A stretch of DNA of 13,000 nt from a virus (IMGVR_UViG_2571042690_000014); one strand, 5' to 3'. Positions 1-13,000 are shown, counted from the stretch's first letter. Notes: a model not told the origin generated them from the sequence alone. Program-made: numbers and translations.

Positions 1-220
1 GCTTCGTGCAGTCTGTCTCGGAAAGAAAAACTTTATGTTCTTTGGCAGCGATCACGGCGGCGAGCGTGGAGCACTGTTGTACGGGCTGATCGGCACCTGC
101 CGTCTGAACGGTATCGATCCGGAAGCGTATCTGCGCCATATCCTGAGCGTACTGCCGGAATGGCCTTCCAACCGAGTTGACGAACTCCTGCCATGGAACG
201 TAGTACTCACCAATAAATAA
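1..220 (+). CDS. IS66-family transposase, C-terminal fragment (5' end lies outside the window)
   Basis: The reading frame is open from the window edge to the TAA at 218-220 (LRAVCLGKKNFMFFGSDHGGERGALLYGLIGTCRLNGIDPEAYLRHILSVLPEWPSNRVDELLPWNV). This matches the conserved C-terminal pattern of IS66-family DDE transposases as I recall it (KN.LF.GS..GG...A..Y.LI.T..LN..DP..YL...L......R..ELLPW). Confidence 0.75.
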   Translation, partial: LRAVCLGKKNFMFFGSDHGGERGALLYGLIGTCRLNGIDPEAYLRHILSVLPEWPSNRVDELLPWNVVLTNK

Positions 221-250
221 GCGTCAATACGGTGCTCCGTTGACGCTTAC
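1..250 (+). mobile_element. IS66-family insertion sequence, right end with terminal inverted repeat
   Basis: The transposase stop is followed by about 30 bp containing the palindrome GTAAGCGTCAA...TTGACGCTTAC (220-250). IS66-family termini begin 5'-GTAAGCG (from memory). At 251 the sequence switches abruptly to codon 3 of phage gene L. Confidence 0.6.
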
Positions 251-943
251 GATATACAGCAGGAAACACTCAATGAGTGCACTAAAACGGAGCAATCCGC
301 GCTGATCGTGCTCTGGGAAATTGATCTGACAGAGGTCGGCGGAGATCGTTATTTCTTCTGTAATGAGCAGAACGAAAAAGGTGAACCGGTCACCTGGCAG
401 GGGCGGCAGTATCAGGCATACCCCATTCAGGGGACGGGATTTGAACTGAACGGTAAGGGCAGTGCTGCCCGTCCGACACTGACGGTCTCTAACCTGCACG
501 GCATGGTCACCGGGATGGCGGAAGACCTGCAGAGTCTGGTCGGCGGAACGGTGGTCAGGCGTAAGGTTTACGCCCGTTTTCTGGATGCGGTGAACTTCGT
601 CAACGGAAACAGTGACGCCGACCCGGAGCAGGAGGTGATCAGCCGCTGGCGCATCGAGCAGTGCAGCGAACTGAGTGCGGTCAGTGCTTCTTTTGTACTG
701 TCCACGCCGACGGAAACGGATGGTGCGGTTTTTCCGGGGCGCATCATGCTGGCCAACACCTGTACCTGGACCTATCGCGGTGATGAGTGCGGTTATAGCG
801 GTCCGGCTGTCGCGGATGAATATGACCAGCCGACGTCCGATATCACGAAAGATAAATGCAGCAAATGCCTGAGTGGCTGTAAGTTTCGCAATAACGTCGG
901 CAACTTTGGCGGCTACCTTTCCATCAACAAACTTTCGCAGTAA
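251..943 (+). CDS. L: Tail tip protein L (lambda gpL-like), 5' end removed by the IS66-family insertion; probably a pseudogene
   Basis: Translation from 251 (DIQQETLNECTKTEQSALIVLWEIDLTEVGGDRYFFCNEQNEKGEPVTWQGRQYQ...FGGYLSINKLSQ) is near-identical to lambda gpL from residue 3 onward. There is no native start codon: the first in-frame start is GTG at 308 with no convincing ribosome-binding site, and an in-frame TAA at 218-220 separates it from the transposase. Confidence 0.85.
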   Translation, partial: DIQQETLNECTKTEQSALIVLWEIDLTEVGGDRYFFCNEQNEKGEPVTWQGRQYQAYPIQGTGFELNGKGSAARPTLTVSNLHGMVTGMAEDLQSLVGGTVVRRKVYARFLDAVNFVNGNSDADPEQEVISRWRIEQCSELSAVSASFVLSTPTETDGAVFPGRIMLANTCTWTYRGDECGYSGPAVADEYDQPTSDITKDKCSKCLSGCKFRNNVGNFGGYLSINKLSQ

Positions 944-948
944 ATCCC

Positions 949-1692
949 ATGACAGAGACAGAATCAGCGATTCTGGCGCACGCCCGGCGATGTGCGCCAG
1001 CGGAGTCGTGCGGCTTCGTGGTGAGAACGCCGGAGGGGGAAAGATATTTCCCCTGCGTGAATATCTCCGGTGAGCCGGAAGATTATTTCCGGATGTCGCC
1101 GGAGGACTGGCTGCAGGCCAAAATGCAGGGTGAGATTGTGGCGCTGGTCCACAGTCACCCCGGTGGTCTGCCCTGGCTGAGTGAGGCTGACAGGCGGCTG
1201 CAGGTGCAGAGTGATTTGCCGTGGTGGCTGGTCTGCCGGGGGGCGATTCATAAGTTCCGCTGTGTGCCGCATCTTACCGGGCGGCGCTTTGAGCACGGGG
1301 TGACGGACTGTTACACGCTGTTCCGGGATGCTTATCATCTGGCGGGGATTGAGATGCCGGATTTTCATCGTGAGGATGACTGGTGGCGTCACGGTCAGAA
1401 TCTCTATCTGGATAATCTGGAGGCCACAGGGCTGTATCAGGTGCCGTTGTCATCAGCACAACCGGGCGATGTGCTGCTGTGCTGCTTTGGTTCATCGGTG
1501 CCGAATCATGCCGCCATTTACTGCGGCGACGGCGAGCTGCTGCACCATATTCCTGAACAACTGAGCAAACGAGAGAGGTATACCGACAAATGGCAGCGAC
1601 GCACACACTCCCTCTGGCGTCACCGGGCATGGCACGCATCTGCCTTTACGGGGATTTGCAACGATTTGGCCACCGCATCGACCTTCGTGTGA
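949..1692 (+). CDS. K: Tail tip assembly protein K (lambda gpK-like) with JAB/MPN (JAMM) and NlpC/P60 domains
   Basis: The 247-aa ORF has a JAMM motif HSHPGGLPWLSEAD (H-x-H-x7-S-x2-D) with an upstream Glu (APAESCG), and an NlpC/P60-like Cys/His pair (VTDCYTLF ... PNHAAIY). The classical lambda annotation starts at the internal Met (ATG at 1093, 199 aa); the longer form is needed to include the complete JAMM domain. Confidence 0.85.
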   Translation: MTETESAILAHARRCAPAESCGFVVRTPEGERYFPCVNISGEPEDYFRMSPEDWLQAKMQGEIVALVHSHPGGLPWLSEADRRLQVQSDLPWWLVCRGAIHKFRCVPHLTGRRFEHGVTDCYTLFRDAYHLAGIEMPDFHREDDWWRHGQNLYLDNLEATGLYQVPLSSAQPGDVLLCCFGSSVPNHAAIYCGDGELLHHIPEQLSKRERYTDKWQRRTHSLWRHRAWHASAFTGICNDLATASTFV

Positions 1693-2237
1693 AAACGGGA
1701 GCCGAAGCTATCCGGGCGCTGGCCACGCAGCTCCCGGCGTTTCGTCAGAAACTGAATGAGGGCTGGTATCAGGTGCGCATTGCCGGGCGTGATGCAGGCG
1801 AAAACGAATTATCTGCCCGTCTTAATGAGCCGCTGGCAAATGGTGCCGTGATCCACATCGTGCCGCGTCTGGCGGGAGCTAAAAGTGGCGGTGTGTTTCA
1901 GGTGGTGCTGGGGGCGGCGCTGATTGCGGTGGCATGGTGGAACCCTGTGGGCTGGCTGGGTGCCGCGGCTGTATCGGGCATGTATGCGGCAGGGGCCAGT
2001 ATGATCCTGGGTGGTGTGGCCCAGATGCTGGCACCGAAAGCCCGGACGCCCACAGCGACCAGCACGGATAACGGTAAGCAGAACACCTATTTCTCATCAC
2101 TGGATAACATGGTTGCCCAGGGCAATGTTCTGCCTGTTCTGTACGGTGAAATGCGCGTGGGGTCTCGTGTGGTTTCTCAGGAGATCAGCACGGCAGATGA
2201 AGGGGACGGTGGTCAGGTTGTGGTGATTGGCCGCTGA
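1590..2237 (+). CDS. I: Tail tip assembly protein I (lambda gpI-like)
   Basis: The translation MAATHTLPLASPGMARICLYGDLQRFGHRIDLRVKTGAEAIRALATQLPAFRQKL...YGEMRVGSRVVSQEISTADEGDGGQVVVIGR matches lambda gpI at both ends. It overlaps the 3' end of K by 103 nt in another frame, as in lambda. Confidence 0.9.
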   Translation: MAATHTLPLASPGMARICLYGDLQRFGHRIDLRVKTGAEAIRALATQLPAFRQKLNEGWYQVRIAGRDAGENELSARLNEPLANGAVIHIVPRLAGAKSGGVFQVVLGAALIAVAWWNPVGWLGAAAVSGMYAAGASMILGGVAQMLAPKARTPTATSTDNGKQNTYFSSLDNMVAQGNVLPVLYGEMRVGSRVVSQEISTADEGDGGQVVVIGR

Positions 2238-2255
2238 TGCAAAATATTTCATGTG

Positions 2256-2283
2256 AAACCGCCTCCGGGCGGTTTTGTCGTTT
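2256..2283 (+). terminator. GC-rich hairpin with trailing T-tract between I and J (possible attenuator or partial terminator)
   Basis: AAACCGCC-TCCG-GGCGGTTTTGTCGTTT forms a perfect 6-8 bp GC stem followed by a T-rich run, directly upstream of the J ribosome-binding site (GGAG) and start at 2298. Confidence 0.35.
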
Positions 2284-2297
2284 ATGGAGCATGACGA

Positions 2298-5200
2298 ATG
2301 GGCAAAGGAAGCAGTAAGGGGCATACCCCGCGCGAAGCGAAGGACAACCTGAAATCCACGCAATTACTGAGTGTGATCGATGCCATCAGCGAAGGGCCGA
2401 TTGAAGGTCCGGTGGATGGATTAAAAAGCGTGCTGCTGAACAGTACACCGGTGCTGGACAGTGAGGGGAATACCAACATCTCCGGTGTTACGGTGGTGTT
2501 CCGGGCAGGTGAGCAGGAGCAGACACCGCCGGAGGGATTTGAATCCTCCGGTTCCGAGACGGTGCTGGGTACGGAAGTGAAATACGACACGCCGATCACC
2601 CGCACCATCACGTCGGCAAACATCGACCGTCTGCGCTTTACCTTCGGTGTGCAGGCACTGGTGGAAACCACCTCAAAGGGGGACAGGAATCCATCGGAAG
2701 TCCGCCTGCTGGTTCAGATACAACGTAACGGTGGCTGGGTGACGGAAAAAGACATCACCATTAAGGGTAAAACCACCTCACAGTATCTGGCCTCAGTGGT
2801 GGTGGATAACCTGCCGCCGCGCCCGTTTAATATCCGGATGCGCAGGATGACGCCGGACAGCACCACAGACCAGCTGCAGAACAAAACGCTCTGGTCGTCA
2901 TACACCGAAATCATCGATGTGAAACAGTGCTACCCGAACACGGCACTGGTCGGCGTACAGGTGGACTCGGAGCAGTTCGGCAGCCAGCAGGTGAGTCGTA
3001 ATTATCATCTTCGCGGGCGCATTCTGCAGGTGCCGTCGAACTATAACCCGCAGACGCGGCAATACAGCGGTATCTGGGACGGAACGTTTAAGCCGGCATA
3101 CAGCAACAACATGGCCTGGTGTCTGTGGGATATGCTGACCCATCCGCGCTACGGCATGGGAAAACGTCTTGGTGCGGCAGATGTGGATAAATGGGCGCTG
3201 TATGTCATCGGCCAGTACTGCGACCAGTCGGTGCCGGACGGCTTTGGCGGCACGGAGCCGCGCATCACCTGTAATGCGTACCTGACCACACAGCGTAAGG
3301 CGTGGGATGTGCTCAGTGATTTCTGCTCGGCGATGCGCTGTATGCCGGTATGGAACGGGCAGACGCTGACGTTCGTGCAGGACCGGCCGTCGGATAATGT
3401 GTGGACCTATAACCGCAGTAATGTGGTGATGCCGGATGATGGCGCGCCGTTCCGCTACAGTTTCAGCGCCCTGAAGGACCGCCATAATGCCGTTGAGGTG
3501 AACTGGACTGACCCGGATAACGGCTGGGAAACGGCAACAGAGCTTGTGGAGGACACGCAGGCCATTGCCCGTTATGGTCGTAATGTCACGAAGATGGATG
3601 CCTTTGGCTGTACCAGCCGGGGGCAGGCACACCGCGCCGGGCTGTGGCTGATTAAAACGGAGCTGCTGGAAACGCAGACCGTGGACTTCAGCGTGGGCGC
3701 AGAAGGGCTTCGCCATGTACCGGGCGATGTTATTGAAATCTGCGATGATGACTATGCCGGTATCAGCACCGGTGGTCGTGTGCTGGCGGTGAGCAGCCAG
3801 ACCCGGACGCTGACGCTCGACCGTGAAATCACGCTGCCATCCTCCGGCACCACGCTGATAAGCCTGGTTGACGGAAGTGGCAATCCGGTCAGCGTGCAGG
3901 TCCAGTCCGTCACCGACGGCGTGAAGGTGAAAGTGAGCCGGGTTCCTGACGGCGTTGCAGAATACAGCGTGTGGGGGCTGAAGTTGCCGACGTTGCGCCA
4001 GCGCCTGTTCCGCTGTGTGAGTATCCGTGAGAACGACGACGGCACGTATGCCATCACCGCCGTGCAGCATGTACCGGAAAAAGAAGCCATCGTGGATAAC
4101 GGGGCGCACTTTGACGGCGACCAGAGCGGCACGGTGAATGGTGTCACGCCGCCAGCGGTGCAGCACCTGGCCGCAGAAGTCACTGCAGACAGCGGGGAAT
4201 ATCAGGTGCTGGCGCGATGGGACACACCGAAGGTGGTGAAGGGCGTGAGCTTCCTGCTCCGTCTGACCGTAACAGCGGACGACGGCAGTGAGCGGCTGGT
4301 CAGCACGGCCCGGACGACGGAAACCACATACCGCTTCAGGCAACTGGCGCTGGGGCGTTACACGCTGACGGTCCGGGCGGTAAATGCGTGGGGGCAGCAG
4401 GGCGATCCGGCATCGGTATCGTTCCGGATTGCGGCACCGGCAGCGCCTGTCACTATTGAACTGATACCAGGGTATTTTCAGATAACAGCGGTCCCGAAAC
4501 TGGCTGTATATGACCCGACGGTGCAGTTTGAGTTCTGGTTCTCGGAAAAGCGGATTATCGATATCAGGCAGGTTGAAACCAGCGCGCGTTATCTTGGTAC
4601 GGCGCTGTACTGGATAGCCGCCAGTAGCAATATTAAGCCGGGTTATGATTATTACTTTTATATCCGCAGCGTGAACACCGTTGGTAAATCGGCATTTGTG
4701 GAGGCCGTTGGTCGGGCGAGCGATGATGCGGAAGGTTATCTGAATTTTTATAAAGGGTTGATCAATAAAACGCATCTCGGCAAGGAACTGCTGGAAAACT
4801 TTGAGCTGACGGAAGATAACGCCAGCAAACTGGAGGAGTTTTCGAAAGAGTGGAAGGACGCCAACGATAAATGGAATGCCATGTGGGGCGTCAAAATTGA
4901 GCAGACCAAAGACGGCAAACATTATGTCGCGGGGCTTGGCCTCAGCATGGAGGATACGGAGGAAGGCAAACTGAGCCAGTTCCTGGTTGCCGCTAACCGT
5001 ATCGCGTTTATTGACCCGGCAAACGGGAATGAAACGCCGATGTTTGTGGCGCAGGGCAACCAGATATTCATGAACGACGTGTTCCTGAAGCGCCTGACGG
5101 CCCCCACCATTACCAGCGGCGGTAATCCTCCGGCATTTTCCCTGACACCGGACGGGCGGCTGACGGCGAAAAATGCCGATATCAGCGGTAACGTGAATGC

Positions 5201-5693
5201 GAACTCCGGGACGCTCAACAACGTCACGATTAACGAGAACTGCCGGGTTCTGGGAAAACTGTCCGCGAACCAGATTGAAGGCGATCTCGTTAAAACAGTG
5301 GGCAAAGCTTTCCCCCGTGACTCCCGGGCACCGGAGCGGTGGCCATCAGGGACCATTACCGTCAGGGTTTATGACGATCAGCCGTTTGACCGGCAAATTG
5401 TTATTCCGGCTGTGGCATTCAGTGGCGCTAAGCATGAGAGAGAGCATACTGATATTTACTCCTCATGCCGTCTGATAGTGCGGAAAAACGGTGCTGAAAT
5501 TTATAACCGTACCGCGCTGGATAATACGCTGATTTACAGTGGCGTTATTGATATGCCTGCCGGTCACGGTCACATGACGCTGGAGTTTTCGGTGTCAGCA
5601 TGGCTGGTAAATGGCTGGTATCCCACAGCAAGTATCAGCGATTTGCTGGTTGTTGTGATGAAGAAAGCCACTGCAGGCATCACGATTAGCTGA
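2298..5693 (+). CDS. J: Central tail fibre / host specificity protein J (lambda gpJ-like)
   Basis: The 1131-aa ORF is near-identical to lambda J over the N-terminal ~980 residues ([43 protein letters not shown]...). A GGAG ribosome-binding site precedes the ATG. The C-terminal ~150 aa diverge from lambda J as I remember it. Confidence 0.95.
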
Positions 5694-5711
5694 ATTTTAT
5701 AACCCAGATAC

Positions 5712-5738
5712 GGGCACCAGAAATGGTGCCTTTTTTAT
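5712..5738 (+). terminator. Rho-independent terminator downstream of J
   Basis: GGCACCA-GAAA-TGGTGCC is a perfect 7-bp stem followed by TTTTTTATT, 20 nt after the J stop codon. Confidence 0.6.
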
Positions 5739-5760
5739 TGCAGAAAAGCGAGAGGTAATT

Positions 5761-6360
5761 ATGCGTAAATTATGTGCTGTTATTCTATCCGCAGTAGTCT
5801 GGCTGGTTGCCGCTGGTACGCCAGCGAGCGCAGCAGAGCATCAGTCCACACTAAGCGCCGGGTATCTTCAGACCCATACTGATATGCCAGGCAGTGATGA
5901 CCTGAAGGGCATTAACGTGAAATACCGTTATGAATTTACGGACACGCTGGGGCTGGTGACGTCATTCAGTTATGCCAATGCCAAAGATGAGCAAAAAACG
6001 CATTACAGCGATACCCGCTGGCATGAAGATTCAGTGCGTAACCGCTGGTTCAGCATGATGGCGGGGCCATCTGTACGCGTGAATGAATGGTTCAGTGCTT
6101 ATGCGATGGCAGGTGTGGCTTACAGCCGTGTTTCGACGTTCTCCGGGGATTATCTCCGCGTAACTGACAACAAGGGGAAAACGCACGATGTGCTGACCGG
6201 AAGTGATGACGATCGCCACAGCAACACGTCTCTGGCGTGGGGAGCTGGCGTGCAGTTTAACCCGACCGAATCCGTGGCCATTGATATTGCTTATGAAGGC
6301 TCCGGCAGTGGCGACTGGCGCACTGACGGTTTCATCGTGGGTGTCGGTTATAAGTTCTGA
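5761..6360 (+). CDS. lom: Outer membrane protein Lom (Ail/Lom/OmpX family beta-barrel), phage moron
   Basis: The 199-aa ORF has a signal peptide (MRKLCAVILSAVVWLVAAGTPASA), the Lom motif KGINVKYRYE and a C-terminus DIAYEGSGSGDWRTDGFIVGVGYKF ending in an aromatic residue, matching lambda Lom. The ribosome-binding site is GAGAGG, and the position after J is as in lambda. Confidence 0.9.
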   Translation: MRKLCAVILSAVVWLVAAGTPASAAEHQSTLSAGYLQTHTDMPGSDDLKGINVKYRYEFTDTLGLVTSFSYANAKDEQKTHYSDTRWHEDSVRNRWFSMMAGPSVRVNEWFSAYAMAGVAYSRVSTFSGDYLRVTDNKGKTHDVLTGSDDDRHSNTSLAWGAGVQFNPTESVAIDIAYEGSGSGDWRTDGFIVGVGYKF

Positions 6361-6386
6361 TTAGCCAGGTAACACAGTGTTATGAC

Positions 6387-6413
6387 AGCCCGCCGGTTCA
6401 GGCGGGCTTTTTT
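6387..6413 (+). terminator. Rho-independent terminator downstream of lom
   Basis: AGCCCGCC-GGTTCA-GGCGGGCT followed by TTTTTT. The equivalent hairpin is present after lom in lambda (recalled from memory). Confidence 0.6.
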
Positions 6414-6481
6414 GTGCACAGAAAACCCCCAGCTAGGCTGGGGGTTCCGGAAAGCTTTCAGCTTTAAGCCAGTTATTAAAA

Positions 6482-6550
6482 CCCCTTTTGATTTGTTAAA
6501 ACACCTTGCGGTCTGGCAACTGCAAGTGTCAAACAAGAAATCAAAAGGGG
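6482..6550 (+). promoter_or_regulatory. Stem-loop sequestering the tnpA ribosome-binding site (IS200-type translational control structure)
   Basis: The left arm CCCCTTTTGATTTGTT (6482-6497) is nearly complementary to AACAAGAAATCAAAAGGGG (6532-6550), which overlaps the ribosome-binding site for the ATG at 6557. Confidence 0.45.
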
Positions 6551-6556
6551 GTCCCA

Positions 6557-7015
6557 ATGGGGAACGAAAAGAGCTTAGCGCACACCCGATGGAACTGTAA
6601 ATATCACATAGTTTTTGCGCCAAAATACCGAAGACAGGTGTTCTACAGAGAGAAGCGTAGAGCAATAGGCAGTATTTTGAGAAAGCTGTGTGAGTGGAAA
6701 AGTGTACGGATTCTGGAAGCTGAATGCTGTGCAGATCATATCCATATGCTTGTGGAGATCCCGCCCAAAATGAGCGTATCCGGCTTTATGGGATATCTGA
6801 AAGGGAAAAGCAGTCTGATGCTTTACGAGCAGTTTGGTGATTTGAAATTCAAATACAGGAACAGGGAGTTCTGGTGCAGAGGGTACTACGTCGATACGGT
6901 GGGTAAGAACACGGCGAAGATACAGGATTACATAAAGCACCAGCTTGAAGAGGATAAAATGGGAGAGCAGTTATCGATTCCCTATCCGGGCAGCCCGTTT
7001 ACGGGCCGTAAGTAA
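6557..7015 (+). CDS. tnpA: IS200/IS605-family Y1 (HUH) transposase TnpA
   Basis: The 152-aa product from the Met at 6557 (MGNEKSLAHTRWNCKYHIVFAPKYRRQVF...) has the HUH motif HIHMLVEI and a downstream catalytic Tyr region (REFWCRGYYVDTVG). The ORF track's longer form (6506) begins upstream of the ribosome-binding site and is less likely. Confidence 0.85.
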   Translation: MGNEKSLAHTRWNCKYHIVFAPKYRRQVFYREKRRAIGSILRKLCEWKSVRILEAECCADHIHMLVEIPPKMSVSGFMGYLKGKSSLMLYEQFGDLKFKYRNREFWCRGYYVDTVGKNTAKIQDYIKHQLEEDKMGEQLSIPYPGSPFTGRK

Positions 7016-7135
7016 CGAAGTTGGATGCAAATGTCAGATCGTGTGCGCCTGTTAGGGCGCGGCTGGTAAGAGAGCCTTATAGGCGCATTTGAAAAACCTC
7101 CGGCTATGCCGGAGGATATTTATTGTGGAGTGGAT

Positions 7136-9514
7136 ATGGCAGCAGTAAAAATCTCAGGTGTGCTGAAAGATGGTGCGGGAAAACCAATACAGAACTGCAC
7201 TATTCAACTGAAGGCAAAGCGTAACAGCACCACGGTACTGGTGAACACGGTGGCTTCTGAAAATCCGGATGAAGCCGGACGTTACAGCATGGATGTTGAG
7301 CATGGTCAGTACAGCGTCACCCTGCTGGTTGAAGGTTTTCCGCCTTCACATGCCGGGACCATTACCGTCTATGAAGGTTCCAGACCAGGTACGCTGAATG
7401 ATTTTCTCGGTGCCATGACGGAGGATGATGTCCGACCGGAGGCACTGCGCCGCTTTGAGCAGATGGTGGAAGAAGCGGCACGCAACGCTGAAGCCGCCTC
7501 TCAGAGCGCAGCGGCGGCAAAGAAATCCGAAACTGCAGCGGCATCATCGAAGAACGCGGCGAAAACCTCAGAAACGAATGCAGCTAACAGCGCACAGGCG
7601 GCAGCGACCTCAAAGACTGCATCGGCAAACTCCGCGACAGCAGCCAAAAAATCAGAAACCAACGCGAAAAATAGCGAGACAGCCGCAAAGACGAGCGAAA
7701 CCAACGCAAAGTCCAGCCAGACGGCAGCGAAAACCAGCGAAACGAATGCCAAAGCCAGTGAAACTGCGGCAAAAAACAGCCAGGTTGCAGCAGCCCAAAG
7801 CGAGAGCGCGGCAGCCGGTTCTGCGACTTCAGCAGCTGGATCAGCAACTGCTGCGGCTAACAGCCGGAAAGCTGCGAAGACGAGTGAAACTAACGCAAAG
7901 TCCAGCCAGACGGCAGCGAAGACCAGCGAAACGAATGCCAAAGCCAGCGAAACTGCGGCGAAAAACAGTCAGGATGCAGCAGCCCAAAGCGAGAGTGCTG
8001 CAGCTGGTTCTGCAAGCGCGGCGGCTGCTTCTGCCACTGCATCAGCCAACAGTCAAAAAGCAGCAAAAACCAGTGAAACCAATGCAAAGACAAGCGAGAC
8101 TGCAGCGGCGAACTCGGCGAAAGCATCCGCTGCAAGCCAGACCGCTGCAAAAGCAAGTGAAGACGCAGCCAGAGAGTATGCAAGCCAGGCAGCAGATCCG
8201 TATAAATATGTCTTACAGCCGCTGCCTGATGTGTGGATACCGTTTAACGATTCACTGGATATGATTACGGGCTTTTCGCCATCATATAAAAAGATTGTTA
8301 TTGGTGACGACGAAATAACGATGCCTGGCGACAAGATTGTTAAGTTTAAACGTGCATCGAAAGCAACCTATATTAACAAATCTGGTGTGCTGACAGAGGC
8401 TGCCATTGATGAGCCACGATTTGAACGTGATGGCCTGCTTATTGAGGGGCAAAGAACTAATCTTCTGCTTAATTCAACAAATCCATCTAAATGGAATAAG
8501 TCAGGCAATCTGGAACTCACAGAAATATCCACGGATTCTTTTAATTTTACTTATGGGAGATTTACTGTAAAAGATACTCTTATTGGTCAGACAAGTGCTA
8601 TTAATATCGTAACGATTTCTGGCAGTAAAGGGTTTGATGTCACAGGTGATGAAAAATATGTGACCATTTCATGCCGTGTAAGAAGTGATGTTGAAAATAT
8701 AAGGTGTCGTTTAAGATTTGAACACCATGATGGTTATACTTACACTTTTTTGGGAGATGCTTACCTCAATTTATCAACACTTGTAATTGATAAAACTGGT
8801 ACTGCTGCAGACCGTATTATTGCAAAGGCTGTAAAAGATGAGGTTACTGGTTGGATTTTCTATCAGGCTACAATTAATGCACTAGATACAGAGAGCATGA
8901 TTGGTGCGATGGTTCAATACGCTCCTGTAAAAGGTTCAGGTACAGCATCTGGAGACTATCTGGATATCGCAACTCCACAAGTGGAAGGTGGATCAAGTGC
9001 TTCGTCATTTATTGTAACTGATATAACTGCAAGCACTCGCGCAAGCGATATGGTGACAGTCCCAATCAAGAATAACCTTTATAATCTTCCTTTTACGGTT
9101 CTTTGTGAGGTACATAAGAACTGGTATAAAACGCCAAATGCAGCACCGCGTGTTTTTGATACCGGCGGTCATCAAACCGGAGCGGCTATTATTCTTGGCT
9201 TCGGTCGTTCAACAGATTACGACGGATTTCCTTATTGTGATATAGGTTTGGCTAACAGACGGGTAAACGAAAACGCATCGCTTGAAAAAATGGTTATGGG
9301 GATGCGTGTAAAGTCAGATCAGTCTACGTGCTCAGTAAGTAACGGGCGTATATCCAGCGAAAAGAAAGCCACATGGTCCTATATTCAGAACTCCGCAATT
9401 ATCCGTATTGGAGGCCAGACTACAGCCGGGTTGCGTCATTTATTTGGTCATGTCAGGAATTTCAGAATATGGCACAAGGCATTGACTGATGCTCAGATGG
9501 GGGAGTCAATCTAA
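7136..9514 (+). CDS. stf: Side tail fibre protein Stf (lambda Stf-like N-terminus, divergent distal domain)
   Basis: From the ATG at 7136, MAAVKISGVLKDGAGKPIQNCTIQLKAKRNSTTVLVNTVASENPDEAGRYSMDVEHGQYSV... matches the lambda Stf N-terminus. It is followed by Ala/Ser/Thr-rich KTSETNAK-type repeats and an AT-richer C-terminal region that does not match lambda. The ribosome-binding site is GGAG at 7127-7130; the ORF track start at 7106 lies inside the IS200 right end and is unlikely. Confidence 0.85.
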   Translation: MAAVKISGVLKDGAGKPIQNCTIQLKAKRNSTTVLVNTVASENPDEAGRYSMDVEHGQYSVTLLVEGFPPSHAGTITVYEGSRPGTLNDFLGAMTEDDVRPEALRRFEQMVEEAARNAEAASQSAAAAKKSETAAASSKNAAKTSETNAANSAQAAATSKTASANSATAAKKSETNAKNSETAAKTSETNAKSSQTAAKTSETNAKASETAAKNSQVAAAQSESAAAGSATSAAGSATAAANSRKAAKTSETNAKSSQTAAKTSETNAKASETAAKNSQDAAAQSESAAAGSASAAAASATASANSQKAAKTSETNAKTSETAAANSAKASAASQTAAKASEDAAREYASQAADPYKYVLQPLPDVWIPFNDSLDMITGFSPSYKKIVIGDDEITMPGDKIVKFKRASKATYINKSGVLTEAAIDEPRFERDGLLIEGQRTNLLLNSTNPSKWNKSGNLELTEISTDSFNFTYGRFTVKDTLIGQTSAINIVTISGSKGFDVTGDEKYVTISCRVRSDVENIRCRLRFEHHDGYTYTFLGDAYLNLSTLVIDKTGTAADRIIAKAVKDEVTGWIFYQATINALDTESMIGAMVQYAPVKGSGTASGDYLDIATPQVEGGSSASSFIVTDITASTRASDMVTVPIKNNLYNLPFTVLCEVHKNWYKTPNAAPRVFDTGGHQTGAAIILGFGRSTDYDGFPYCDIGLANRRVNENASLEKMVMGMRVKSDQSTCSVSNGRISSEKKATWSYIQNSAIIRIGGQTTAGLRHLFGHVRNFRIWHKALTDAQMGESI
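7688..8065 (+). repeat. Tandem duplication of a 189-bp (63-codon) unit inside stf
   Basis: AAGACGAGCGAAACCAACGCAAAGTCCAGCCAGACGGCAGCGAAAACCAGCGAAACGAATGCCAAAGCCAGTGAAACTGCGGC... from 7688 recurs from 7877 with only a few substitutions. It encodes two copies of TSETNAKSSQTAAKTSETNAKASETAAKNSQ.AAAQSESAAAGSA. Confidence 0.75.
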
Positions 9515-9795
9515 TGAAAGATTTAACACTCAAATTTGCAGACAGGGCCGACTTTTCGGCCTTTATGGATAGCATTGGCTATTATGATGACGAGTCGATG
9601 CAGGATGATATTCTTATTGACGTGATAGGTAACGTGTACAAAGAAACCGGAGAACTGACTGAAGATGGCGAACCGGTATGTGTTAAGGAAGATGGATATT
9701 ATGTAAACGTGCGCATCATTAATGATGCAAAAAAATCGTCAATATTCGATGAATACGCGGTTGTAGTTGAACATCAACTTCGTGGCTGGATGTGA
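9514..9795 (+). CDS. Hypothetical small acidic protein (93 aa), translationally coupled to stf
   Basis: The start overlaps the stf stop (TAATG) and is preceded by a GGGGGAG ribosome-binding site. The product is rich in Asp/Glu (MKDLTLKFADRADFSAFMDSIGYYDDESMQDDILIDV...) with no recognisable motif, and the sequence is AT-rich like the distal part of stf. Confidence 0.5.
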   Translation: MKDLTLKFADRADFSAFMDSIGYYDDESMQDDILIDVIGNVYKETGELTEDGEPVCVKEDGYYVNVRIINDAKKSSIFDEYAVVVEHQLRGWM

Positions 9796-9804
9796 GGGAG
9801 ACAA

Positions 9805-10509
9805 ATGGCTACATCGACAGTAATTCCAGGAGACATCACCACGTTAAAGGGAGATGTCAGTAAAGCCAAGGAAGATATTTCCTCAATTAACGGAAAAGTA
9901 TCAACGCTTCAGGCTGATATGACCAGTGCAAAGCAGGATATCAGCACCAGATACACAAAAACTGAAGTTGATAATAAGCTGAAAAACAAACTGGAAGTGA
10001 ACGCTCTGGAAAGCGGTCGTTATGGTGGAGATTTTTACCCGTTGACTGGCCGTGAAGCGTTTTATTTGTGGGGATTGGGCACGACTACAGCGGCGGCAAA
10101 CCTTTATCTTAATCCTGACCCCGCAATTTCGTCTGTGCTGCGGTCAACATCGTCTATCCGCTATAAACATTCAGTAGAGACAATAGATTCAGAGCACGCC
10201 GATCTCATTTTCAGGATGCGCCCTGTGTGGTACAGGTCACAATGCGAAAATGACAGGCGTGACTGGGGATTCTACGGATTGATTGCCGAGGAAGTAGGAG
10301 AAATTGCCCCTCAGTTTGTACACTGGCGACCAGCTAACGAAGATGATGCACCGGAAGCTATTTCCAGCAATGGCCTTGTTGCCGAAGGTGTAATGTACGA
10401 ACGTCTGGTTGTTCCACTGATTCACCATATCCAGAAGCTGACTGAAAGAGTTGATGAACTTGAGTCAGAATTAAAGTTGTTATCCGTTTCCCGAAGCGAT
10501 ATCGGATAA
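9805..10509 (+). CDS. Fibre-like coiled-coil protein with C-terminal intramolecular-chaperone (peptidase S74-like) domain
   Basis: It has a GAGGGAG ribosome-binding site. The N-terminus carries repeated coiled-coil-like units (GDVSKAKEDISSINGKVSTLQADMTSAKQDISTRYTKTEVDNKLKNKLE). The C-terminus fits the S74 / chaperone-of-endosialidase pattern: SIRYK (S-x-R-x-K), then LIFRMRPVWYRS, WGFYGLIAEEVGEIAPQFV and VMYERLVVPLIHHIQKLTERVDELESEL. The assignment is from memory of the family signature, not a search. Confidence 0.55.
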   Translation: MATSTVIPGDITTLKGDVSKAKEDISSINGKVSTLQADMTSAKQDISTRYTKTEVDNKLKNKLEVNALESGRYGGDFYPLTGREAFYLWGLGTTTAAANLYLNPDPAISSVLRSTSSIRYKHSVETIDSEHADLIFRMRPVWYRSQCENDRRDWGFYGLIAEEVGEIAPQFVHWRPANEDDAPEAISSNGLVAEGVMYERLVVPLIHHIQKLTERVDELESELKLLSVSRSDIG

Positions 10510-10519
10510 AGGAGGAGTA

Positions 10520-10807
10520 ATGGATATAAGCCCCTTACTTCATGCACTTTGTGCTGTGGCTGCGCAAACACTGGTTGGTCTTTTTACCGGAAACTGGGCT
10601 TACGGAGCGATAGCCGGTTGTACGTTCTTCATTGCGCGTGAACACACCCAGGCAGAATATCGCTGGATCGAAATGTTCGGGCATGGCAAGCGAATGAATA
10701 TGCCGTGGTGGGGCGGTTTTGATCCGCGCGCGTGGGATGTGACAAGCCTGATGGATTTTGCTGTGCCGGTGGTGGCGTGTCTGCTGATCTGGATGTTGAT
10801 CCGTTAA
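10520..10807 (+). CDS. Hypothetical small membrane protein (95 aa)
   Basis: It has a strong GGAGGAG ribosome-binding site 3 nt after the preceding stop. There are hydrophobic segments at both ends (LLHALCAVAAQTLVGLFTG, AIAGCTFFIA, FAVPVVACLLIWMLI). GC content is higher than in the two genes before it. Confidence 0.5.
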   Translation: MDISPLLHALCAVAAQTLVGLFTGNWAYGAIAGCTFFIAREHTQAEYRWIEMFGHGKRMNMPWWGGFDPRAWDVTSLMDFAVPVVACLLIWMLIR

Positions 10808-11159
10808 ATATAAAAGCCGCAGTAACTTGCCATGATAGGATACTGCGGCTGGCTGGTTAACTTTCGATAGTGCGAGTATTGAATGATTTCCAGCCGTTAC
10901 TGATTTTATATAACGGCAGTGGAATTATTCAACACACAGGCAAAACACAGGCAAAACGGAATAAGCTGAGAAAAAAAGCGTGCTTTCCCAATCTGGGGCA
11001 AATCACGTCTGAATGACACCTGAAAACAGGTGGTGGACTCAAGAAGGCTTGGAATATTCTTCTTTAATGTTATGTAATTCATTGATTTTTCGTGTACGAT
11101 TTTAAGACATTTATTCCAAGAAGAATTTTTAACTCTTTGATTTTTCTACTCTGTATCAT

Positions 11160-11221
11160 CGGTCTCGAAAACCGGAGTAGGGGCAACTCTACCGGGGGTT
11201 CAAATCCCCCTCTCTCCGCCA
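11160..11221 (+). other. Prophage att core: 62-nt 3' fragment of a tRNA-Ser (anticodon CGA, serU-type) gene, from anticodon stem to CCA
   Basis: CGGTCTCGAAAACCGGAGTAGGGGCAACTCTACCGGGGGTTCAAATCCCCCTCTCTCCGCCA has an anticodon stem-loop (anticodon CGA), a long variable arm, a T-arm GGGGGTTCAAATCCCCC and a 3' acceptor strand plus CCA. There is no 5' acceptor strand or D-arm upstream, so it is a partial copy, as expected for an att duplicate where a phage integrates into a tRNA gene. Confidence 0.7.
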
Positions 11222-11770
11222 CTTTATCAATGACTTATCTCCCGACTTCCCGCCTTGCTTTTCCTAAACAGAACAATCGTAGGATATTCTTGAAGGGTTA
11301 GATCGTCACTGTTTTCTGTTCGATACTGTGACATTCAGCACTTGATTCGCTATGGGTCTGACAGGAAGGTTTCGAGCGAAAATCTACAGTTATTCAGTCG
11401 TTTTCTTATCGGTCACCATTATTCTTTTAGACATTGATCCTATGAAACTGCCGCAAAGTTGCTGGCGGGAACTGAAGTTGCGTAGAGAAGGGGTCAATAA
11501 TTGAGCCAAAAAAGGAACGCGGCCGTCAGATTAAAGCCGCGGGACAAAGTCCATAATTTCCAAGAGTTGTTGAATTTCCCAGCTTTTTTGAAAGCCTTTG
11601 TATCATACTAACAAGTAAAAAAGGTTTAAACACCAAAATTAACCTATATTTCTGGTTAGCTTTACCATGACAGATGACTTGCTCCTGGAGACATTTGCGC
11701 TGCCAGTCTGTATGGCTGAGTTGTGTATTTATTGTTCGCCTTTTTCTCAGTTTTTTTCTACAGACATAAT

Positions 11771-11802
11771 AAAAAAGACACGACTCAAGTATGAGCGTGT
11801 CT
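11771..11802 (-). terminator. Rho-independent terminator on the minus strand, downstream of zinT
   Basis: On the minus strand AGACACGCTCATACTTGAGTCGTGTCT is followed by TTTTTT (plus-strand AAAAAAGACACG...CGTGTCT), about 90 nt beyond the zinT stop. Confidence 0.5.
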
Positions 11803-11890
11803 GAGTTTGTCTTACTTATTTGTCTTGGTAAATTATTGTTGTTACTACCAGGCACTGTTCTGTTAAATAACTGAAGTCAGCGCAAAAAAA

Positions 11891-12541
11891 TCAATGAGAC
11901 ATCATCTCCTCGACCACTTCTTCGCTACTCAACTGATAGGGATAATACGTTGGCCAGTTTTCCATTTCATTCAATAAAGATTGCTGGGAATCATTACCCA
12001 TAAAAATGTGAAAATGAGATGATTTTCGTGGTGCAATTATATGATCGCTAAATTGTATATATTTAGGGGCTTTGCTTTCAGGATCTTTACATTCGAATAA
12101 GTAACGAACGCCTTTCTTGCCTGATTTATAGGTGAGTATTTTGTATCCATCGTAATCATATTTACAGGATGTTGTTTCATTATTTCTATGGAATTCGACA
12201 ATGCCGTCCTCAATGCCAATCATTTCGATATCTGTCGCATAACCTTTGCGATAATAATCTTTAATTTCAGCAAATGTTTTGGTTTTATCTGCATCCGCTT
12301 TCTTCTGAAAGACGGGGTCAAGTTTGCCACTTTGCAGTAAAGGGTAAACGGATTGCCAGACTCCATCCCAGTCACTGAGCGTTCGGTTTTGTACATTGGT
12401 ATCATCAAAAACACCATTAGCAGCTTTTTGTTCGACCTCTGTTAAGGGTTTGCCGTGTGAGTGATGACCATGCGAAAAGGCAGGAGCGCTAACAATAAAG
12501 ACACCTAAAGCAACAGCCAGTTTATGAAGACGAATCGCCAA
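11891..12541 (-). CDS. zinT: ZinT (YodA), periplasmic zinc/cadmium-binding protein (host gene)
   Basis: The 216-aa product [47 protein letters not shown]...[17 protein letters not shown] has a His-rich N-terminus after the signal peptide and matches E. coli ZinT from memory. The start appears to be TTG, with a GGAGG ribosome-binding site 8 nt upstream. Confidence 0.9.
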
Positions 12542-12574
12542 AACAATTTCCTCCAGAGTTAATGTACATGATGT

Positions 12575-12595
12575 GTAATGTTATATTGTAACATA
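12575..12595 (-). promoter_or_regulatory. Zur-box-like palindrome in the zinT promoter
   Basis: The near-palindrome ATGTTATATTGTAACAT lies 34-54 nt upstream of the zinT start and resembles the Zur operator consensus (GAAATGTTATA-N-TATAACATTTC type). zinT is a known Zur-regulon member. Confidence 0.55.
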
Positions 12596-12801
12596 TGAAA
12601 AAATGCAACAACTCATTAGGAAATGAGAGCATGGTATTCTCAGGTGTATTGAACTATCTTATTGAAATAAAATAAATTATTCTGGTGATGAAAGGTTGAT
12701 GACAAACGAAACATAACTTGATGCGATCTGTGTGGGCCGGATAGGGCGCTTGAACTGCACCCCAAATGTTGGACATAATCTGACATCTGAAGGTGCAGTT
12801 T

Positions 12802-13000
12802 ATGAAACATTCATTTGAAGTAAAACTTGCCGCTGTAAATCATTACCTGGCTGGTCATGCAGGCATCATTTCTACGGCAAAACTCTTTCAACTTTCTCAC
12901 ACCAGCCTCTCACACTGGATTAATCTTTTTCTTCTTCACGGTCCTCGGGCACTGGATTGCAGACACAAGCGTAGCTATTCTCCTGAAGATAAACTTTGCG
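12802..13000 (+). CDS. IS3-family (IS150-like) transposase OrfA, N-terminal part (runs off the window end)
   Basis: From the ATG at 12802 (ribosome-binding site AGGTG) the translation MKHSFEVKLAAVNHYLAGHAGIISTAKLFQLSHTSLSHWINLFLLHGPRAL... follows the helix-turn-helix OrfA pattern of IS150-like elements (FE.RL..VNHY....G..IS..F......W..L...HG). There is no stop codon within the window. Confidence 0.55.
   Translation, partial: MKHSFEVKLAAVNHYLAGHAGIISTAKLFQLSHTSLSHWINLFLLHGPRALDCRHKRSYSPEDKLC

Follow-up and report, generated by a model that had tools for sequence, protein, structure and literature searches.

Organization of the analysed DNA

The window, i.e. the whole stretch of DNA analysed here, comprises 13,000 nt of the viral record IMGVR_UViG_2571042690_000014, read on one strand. 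It begins within an insertion sequence (IS) of the IS66 family, ISEc23, whose 3′ end directly adjoins a tail-tip gene L deprived of its start codon. This is followed by further genes of a lambda-like tail-tip operon and, beyond the end of the prophage, by bacterial chromosomal DNA. The remainder of the 2,532-bp ISEc23 is located to the left of the window. A summary of the features, including their position, strand and the evidence on which they were assigned, is presented in Table 1.

Table 1. Features assigned within the 13,000-nt window
Feature	Position	Strand	Evidence
ISEc23 (IS66 family), 3′ 250 bp	1-250	+	100% identity to annotated ISEc23 copies (thousands of records)
C-terminus of ISEc23 TnpC (DDE transposase), 72 codons (2-217) and stop TAA (218-220)	2-220	+	Pfam, translation
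Hairpin TAAGCGTCA...TGACGCTTA, ~13 pairs, -17.0 kcal/mol	218-249	+	RNA fold
ISEc23 right terminal inverted repeat, 24 bp, imperfect	227-250	+	Comparison of left and right ends
Predicted right-hand copy of 8-bp target-site duplication, GATATACA	251-258	+	Inferred from 7 of 7 other copies
Tail-tip gene L, codons 3-232 and stop, without start codon	251-943	+	Pfam, lambda gpL, EC958
10-codon ORF (frame 0), ATG273 to TGA 303-305	273-305	+	Start-codon analysis
Longest remaining in-frame ORF of L, from GTG (codon 22), 211 aa	308-943	+	ORF list, Shine-Dalgarno analysis
Tail-tip assembly gene K (JAB + NlpC/P60), intact	949-1692	+	Pfam
Tail assembly gene I, intact	1590-2237	+	Pfam Lambda_tail_I
Tail-tip/host-specificity gene J, 1,131 aa, intact	2298-5693	+	ORF list; identical to EC958 gpJ
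lom (Ail/Lom outer-membrane protein), intact	5761-6360	+	Pfam Ail_Lom, positions 1-199 of 199
IS200C in the lom-stf spacer (limits +/- ~9 nt)	6417-7118	+	Rfam, Pfam Y1_Tnp, IS200-free relative (L007)
Side tail fibre gene stf, 792 aa, intact	7136-9514	+	Pfam phage_tail_N; RefSeq on identical DNA
Partial tRNA-Ser, 3′ segment (attR)	~11160-11222	+	Direct read; JJ1886 tRNA-Ser beside integrase
zinT (chromosomal, outside the prophage)	11891-12541	-	
Start of IS1397 (IS3 family), transposase CDS from ~12802 (chromosomal, outside the prophage)	to 13000		

The genes of the operon are arranged in the order L-K-I-J-lom-stf, and in the IS-free parental locus L is preceded by gene M. The K protein occurs in identical form in thousands of assemblies. 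A preceding examination, made from the sequence alone, had described J, lom and stf as intact; this holds, and all three are also identical to their counterparts in EC958, the reference strain of Escherichia coli ST131.

The IS200C element contains the STnc490 sRNA (6424-6547; Rfam RF01405, 146 bits), which is an Hfq-binding sRNA, and tnpA (6557-7015). It is carried by all ST131 copies of the prophage and is missing from relatives such as the one used to define its limits (Table 1). The lom-stf spacer measures 64 nt, and IS200C ends ~17 nt ahead of the stf ATG (7136). The element might affect the expression of stf.

The right boundary of the prophage is set by attR, ~350 nt past the last phage ORF; everything to the right of it is chromosomal. 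The tRNA-Ser segment that constitutes attR differs by a few bases from the tRNA-Ser copy located beside the integrase gene, and ARAGORN called no full tRNA in the window. IS1397 is also present in the zinT-msrQ intergenic region of EC958 and of E. coli strain 1446.

The right end of ISEc23

In RefSeq, the elements matching positions 1-250 at 100% identity are labelled "IS66-like element ISEc23 family transposase". Translation of 2-217 yielded a match to the Pfam family DDE_Tnp_IS66_C (PF13817) with an E value of 2e-17 and 63.5 bits, the cut-off being 30 bits. ISEc23 is widespread: a 3′ end identical to 1-250 was found in 4,590 of the 5,426 complete E. coli genomes, at a median of 3 places per genome, both in chromosomes and in plasmids.

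The limits of the element were set by comparing the ISEc23 copy residing in gene K of strain 1446 with the uninterrupted locus of EC958. This complete copy (2,532 bp) starts with GTAAGCGTAAACTGACC... and ends with ...CTCCGTTGACGCTTAC, and its last base is the same as base 250 of the window, at which the terminus reads ...GTTGACGCTTAC. The right terminus is shared by the strain 1446 copy and six other copies of ISEc23. The reverse complement of 227-250, GTAAGCGTCAACGGAGCACCGTAT, matches the left end of the full copy at 20 of 24 positions, so that an imperfect terminal inverted repeat of the IS66 type (~20-30 bp, starting with GTAAGCG) is present at the end of ISEc23. The hairpin that may be formed by 218-249 is part of every ISEc23 copy. 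It has no T-run downstream and is therefore not an intrinsic terminator; a terminator scan at this position also found nothing. No promoter-like site facing outward from the IS end was found.

The junction between ISEc23 and gene L

Codon 3 of L (GAT) begins at base 251. Matches to uninterrupted L genes start exactly at this base, the L CDS of EC958 begins 6 nt ahead of the equivalent position, and five other loci carry an identical ...CACTGATGCAGGATATACAGCAGGA context at the start of L. The sequence-only reading, in which the right end of an IS66-family element abuts codon 3 of L, was thus correct with respect to both the family (100% identity to ISEc23 and the DDE_Tnp_IS66_C match) and the point of contact (terminus at 250, codon 3 from 251 by comparison with EC958).

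TnpC and L lie in one frame, which reads across 2-943 as ...PWNVVLTNK (stop) ASIRCSVDAY DIQQETLNECTKTEQSALIVLWEIDL... (across the junction, ...LTNK (stop) ASIRCSVDAY DIQQETLNEC...). Between TnpC and codon 3 of L there is the TAA codon plus 30 nt. The common frame and the single TAA had been recognized before, whereas what had been called a 30-bp inverted repeat is a 30-nt spacer containing the 24-bp imperfect repeat. The agreement in frame is a 1-in-3 chance event, without demonstrable meaning here.

From codon 3 on, L shows 100% nucleotide identity to the EC958 gene. Its product matches the complete Phage_tail_L profile (Pfam PF05100; positions 1-206 of 206; E = 6.5e-99), the domain beginning at ~residue 29, and F-pyocin hub protein homology starts already at residue 15. 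With the missing residues MQ restored, L is ~93% identical to lambda gpL over 232 residues; the phmmer comparison with chain L of PDB entry 8IYK gave an E value of 1.5e-151. In the alignment, L and lambda gpL are identical in the columns of Cys173, Cys182, Cys205 and Cys212; these four residues of lambda gpL bind a [4Fe-4S] cluster (PMC10721106).

In the IS-free locus, the native ATG of L overlaps the stop codon of gene M (cTGATGc), which, as judged from the nucleotide sequence, is a classic arrangement for translational coupling. The L gene of the window does not constitute a complete CDS: codons 1-2 are absent, and codon 22 is the earliest position at which an in-frame ATG, GTG or TTG occurs. 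It is very probable that these features result from transposition of ISEc23 into L, between codons 2 and 3, in a lambda-like prophage of ST131, with the loss of full-length gpL.

The parental prophage and the age of the insertion

Positions 251-13000 are identical to EC958 over their entire length (12,750 of 12,750 nt, zero mismatches), and L is intact in this strain. Identity of this segment is likewise 100% to JJ1886 and to further ST131 genomes. A total of 97 complete genomes contain at least 80% of the window in one place, and a search with the identical K protein returned 10 places, all of which carry an intact L of 232 aa. Since the IS-L junction is present in 0 of the 5,426 complete E. 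coli genomes and the prophage is otherwise unchanged, the insertion of ISEc23 in L is recent and strain-specific.

The parental element in EC958 is a lambdoid prophage of ~41 kb, flanked by tRNA-Ser/mtfA on one side and by zinT on the other. According to the annotation, the genes for terminase, portal, capsid, tail, lysis, Q and recombination are intact. In the proposed reading, the prophage of the window resides at the serU tRNA-Ser gene of an ST131-type E. coli chromosome, with the transposase gene of the inserted ISEc23 running in the direction of the late operon. The seven prophages of EC958 are described as near-universal in clade C in the corresponding genome report (PMC4134206). Besides lom, the cargo of the EC958 prophage includes iss (serum survival), iraM, hokD and dicB (locus L015, 27854-28147 and neighbouring genes). 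A tail inactivated by an IS would lock such cargo genes into the chromosome.

The occurrence of further ISs (IS200 and IS3 family) next to ISEc23 had been taken as a sign of a decaying prophage. This argument proved to be weak: IS1397 is separated from the prophage by attR and zinT, and IS200C occupies an intergenic site at which it is fixed in ST131. Because the window without the IS is identical to EC958 over 12,750 nt, one recent hit, and not progressive decay, is indicated.

The integrase gene is annotated as frameshifted in EC958 (L015, 44065-45115), JJ1886 (L016, 1479-2529) and strain 1446 (L017, 2119-3169). Its ORF encodes 341 aa, the match to the 172-position Pfam Phage_integrase profile spans positions 25-165, and intact phage integrases can be aligned with it up to ~residue 330. 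From these data the protein looks essentially full length, with the annotated frameshift touching only the extreme C-terminus, and the integrase defect was dropped as a proof of decay. Two records of "phages" with an identical integrase were likewise rejected as a proof of viability, as they are prophage predictions into which chromosomal genes were included, and have different tails. One of them, ON470583.1 (vB_EcoS-689R5, partial genome), contains chromosomal tRNA-Asn, mtfA and tRNA-Ser genes together with a second integrase gene, and, judging from this content, it represents a bacterial contig's prophage region rather than the genome of a virion.

It is possible, if unlikely, that the lesion in L is inconsequential, either because the prophage was already non-viable or because other lambdoid prophages in the cell provide gpL in trans. 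Prior loss of viability is suggested by the annotated frameshift of the integrase gene in all three genomes named above and by three other small annotated pseudogenes in the EC958 prophage, but the integrase still comprises 341 aa and the head, tail, lysis, Q and terminase genes of EC958 are annotated as intact. Supply in trans is consistent with the presence of 3-5 L paralogues in each ST131 genome (megablast). Draft sequences of related strains (L003, L004) break inside L at the equivalent of window position 306, an indication that the initial ~300 nt of L, along with the region upstream, are repeated among co-resident lambdoid prophages. Given 3-5 paralogues per genome, trans-complementation or recombinational repair would be possible, and the paralogues might supply gpL if co-induced.

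Predicted target duplication and left side of the element

Transposition of ISEc23 into L would have occurred as a simple insertion accompanied by an 8-bp duplication, GATATACA. In a sample of other copies of the element, 7 of 7 are flanked by perfect 8-bp target duplications. These copies are 2,531-2,532 bp long, and all contain tnpA, tnpB and tnpC and the identical right end. Their duplications (ATATCTCC, CAGATTCC, GCTCAAGC, CGTTACTC, ACATAAAA, TTAACAAG and GCTCTTTC) have no consensus; a preference of ISEc23 for "ATAT", a motif common to the targets in L and K, was rejected for this reason.

The uninterrupted target, as present in intact L genes, is ATGCAG-GATATACA-GCAG. As 8-bp duplications border all seven of the other copies, GATATACA at 251-258 is most likely the right copy of the duplication, and, by the same evidence, the L start codon most likely sits beyond the far side of the IS. 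The predicted left side consists of ...CACTGATGCAGGATATACA, followed by GTAAGCGTAAACTGACC and then by tnpA-tnpB-tnpC; a simple insertion predicts ...ATGCAGGATATACA directly ahead of GTAAGCGTAAACTGACC. The sequence expected on the far side is ...ATG CAG GAT ATA CA/G TAA GCG..., and the native L start would yield only MQDIQ-stop.

None of the contig collections searched (genome, viral and metagenome) contains the exact IS-L junction. Scans of the collections for the predicted left junction found nothing, and a synthetic 90-nt left-junction query gave only spurious partial matches in complete E. coli genomes; this absence is expected if the source genome lies outside all the collections searched. 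When the 211-aa truncated L was looked up, all matches were draft contigs that begin at window position 306; they contain partial genes at the contig edge and give no information on the IS.

An explanation of the junction that we regard as improbable is that the IS marks the breakpoint of a rearrangement (homologous recombination between two ISEc23 copies, or an IS-mediated adjacent deletion), with unrelated DNA on its far side. The start of L, genes M and H, and possibly the head and early genes would then have been deleted or displaced. The multicopy nature of ISEc23 provides substrates for such recombination, and the left junction is located outside the window and was not found in the searched collections. 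The perfect 8-bp duplications nevertheless identify all seven sampled copies as un-rearranged simple insertions, and positions 251-13000 are otherwise unchanged with respect to EC958.

Residual coding capacity of gene L

None of the codons ATG, GTG and TTG occurs in frame between the TAA at 218-220 and L. Canonical starts inside the IS end are limited to GTG232 (frame 1) and TTG240 (frame 0), L being in frame 2. An in-frame start supplied by the IS end, the circumstance named in the sequence-only reading as the one that would speak against it, was looked for, and none is present. The ISEc23 end can donate a start codon where the frame fits, and in strain 2/0 RefSeq places the start of a phage fibre CDS, fused to the IS end, at the TTG of the ISEc23 terminus (..GT TTG ACG CTT AC; locus L019, 2940). 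Donation of a start to L was rejected, as TTG240 is in frame 0 and L in frame 2.

The first in-frame start is GTG308. A GGAG sequence (289-292) stands 15 nt 5′ of this codon, a poor spacing, too far for efficient initiation. Its pairing with the anti-Shine-Dalgarno sequence amounts to -5.8 kcal/mol, as compared with -6.5 at the native L site, and the region of GTG308 is predicted to be largely paired (mean unpaired probability 0.30). The earlier statement that L lacks both a native start and a good ribosome-binding site agrees with these results. The 10-codon ORF in frame 0, starting with ATG273, is preceded by AGGA (261-264) with an 8-nt spacer, and its TGA ends 2 nt ahead of GTG308. It could provide a termination-reinitiation route to truncated L, which is possible but speculative.

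A product initiated at GTG308 would retain the whole Phage_tail_L domain and the four Fe-S cysteines, and would lose residues 1-21. There may be low-level synthesis of this shortened protein, but a functional L product is predicted to be unlikely. The chance that gpL shortened to residues 22-232, perhaps made by reinitiation, still assembles and leaves the prophage tail-proficient appears slight. In its favour are the in-frame position of GTG308, the retained domain and cysteines, and the favourable spacing and stop of the ATG273 ORF; against it are the distance of GGAG, the low accessibility of the start and the lost coupling to M. In addition, residues 1-21 lie within a folded domain: the HDI beta-sandwich of lambda gpL comprises residues 1-166 and builds the last tail ring together with gpJ (PMC10721106). 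The deletion also enters the conserved core, as marked by the F-pyocin hub homology from residue 15. A single-sequence AlphaFold2 model of L, made for the packing of residues 1-21, had a mean pLDDT of 36.3 and was unusable.

An artefactual origin of the junction, through erroneous joining of contigs at a repeat during assembly, is scarcely credible: the junction is indeed unique across all searched collections, but the break falls at the true ISEc23 terminus and not inside repeated sequence, as real transposition predicts, and an independent ISEc23 insertion is present in the adjoining gene K of the same prophage in two complete genomes.

Probable consequences of the insertion

With ISEc23 inserted between codons 2 and 3 of L, full-length gpL would not be made, and the translational coupling between M and L would be cut by the IS. 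L is required for lambda tail assembly, as established by classical lambda genetics; because of this requirement, the prophage alone, without gpL, could not build its own tails or infectious particles. A block in tail-tip assembly, as had been proposed, is plausible. The genes K, I, J, lom and stf could still be transcribed if Q-modified RNA polymerase reads through the IS, by analogy with the suppression of IS polarity by antitermination. Translation of K may also suffer, since its ATG is located 5 nt past the L stop codon and has no Shine-Dalgarno sequence.

The insertion shows current activity of ISEc23 in the ST131 background, and this copy of a prophage that is near-universal in clade C is probably unable to build its own tails. 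This could be relevant to studies of prophage induction, transduction and phage-derived particles in this isolate; otherwise it is mainly a matter of strain-level annotation. The IS-L junction could serve as a strain marker.

Comparison with known insertions and prophages

The insertion of an IS into L belongs to a class of events that is well understood; the elements taking part are known, and no new element, mechanism or system is represented. The ISEc23 copies found in ST131 chromosomes and IncF plasmids share the same 250 bp, TnpC C-terminus, repeat and terminus with the copy described here, which differs from them only in its insertion site: the position between L codons 2 and 3 is occupied in 0 of the 5,426 complete genomes.

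A close parallel is found in E. coli strains 1446 and 1447 (Italy), in which this prophage has ISEc23 inserted in K, ~0.8 kb downstream of the L site and with unchanged orientation. In strain 1446 this copy occupies positions 6819-9350 of locus L002, and the duplication ATATCTCC lies within K. The two insertions are alike in the IS, in the ST131 prophage that was hit and in the disruption of a gene for tail-tip assembly. They are, however, independent events; the K insertion has another target, ATATCTCC, and L is intact in strains 1446 and 1447. Chance is the default explanation for the two hits, and a regional insertion hot spot is an alternative. There is only a small likelihood that selection in ST131 has repeatedly favoured the silencing of virion or tail production together with retention of the cargo (lom, iss).

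With respect to lambda, whose HDI hub protein of the tail tip, gpL, is represented in the PDB entries 8IYK and 8XCG, the ~93% identity, the Fe-S cysteines and the gene order L-K-I-J-lom-stf are alike. In contrast to lambda, the gene described here is without its start and first two codons, and the M-L coupling is cut by the IS. In lambdoid prophages disrupted by ISs, such as the IS-riddled ones of E. coli O157 and of Shigella, an IS in a morphogenesis gene blocks virion formation while cargo such as lom and iss persists. The prophage of the window differs from these in showing a single recent hit and no accumulated decay.
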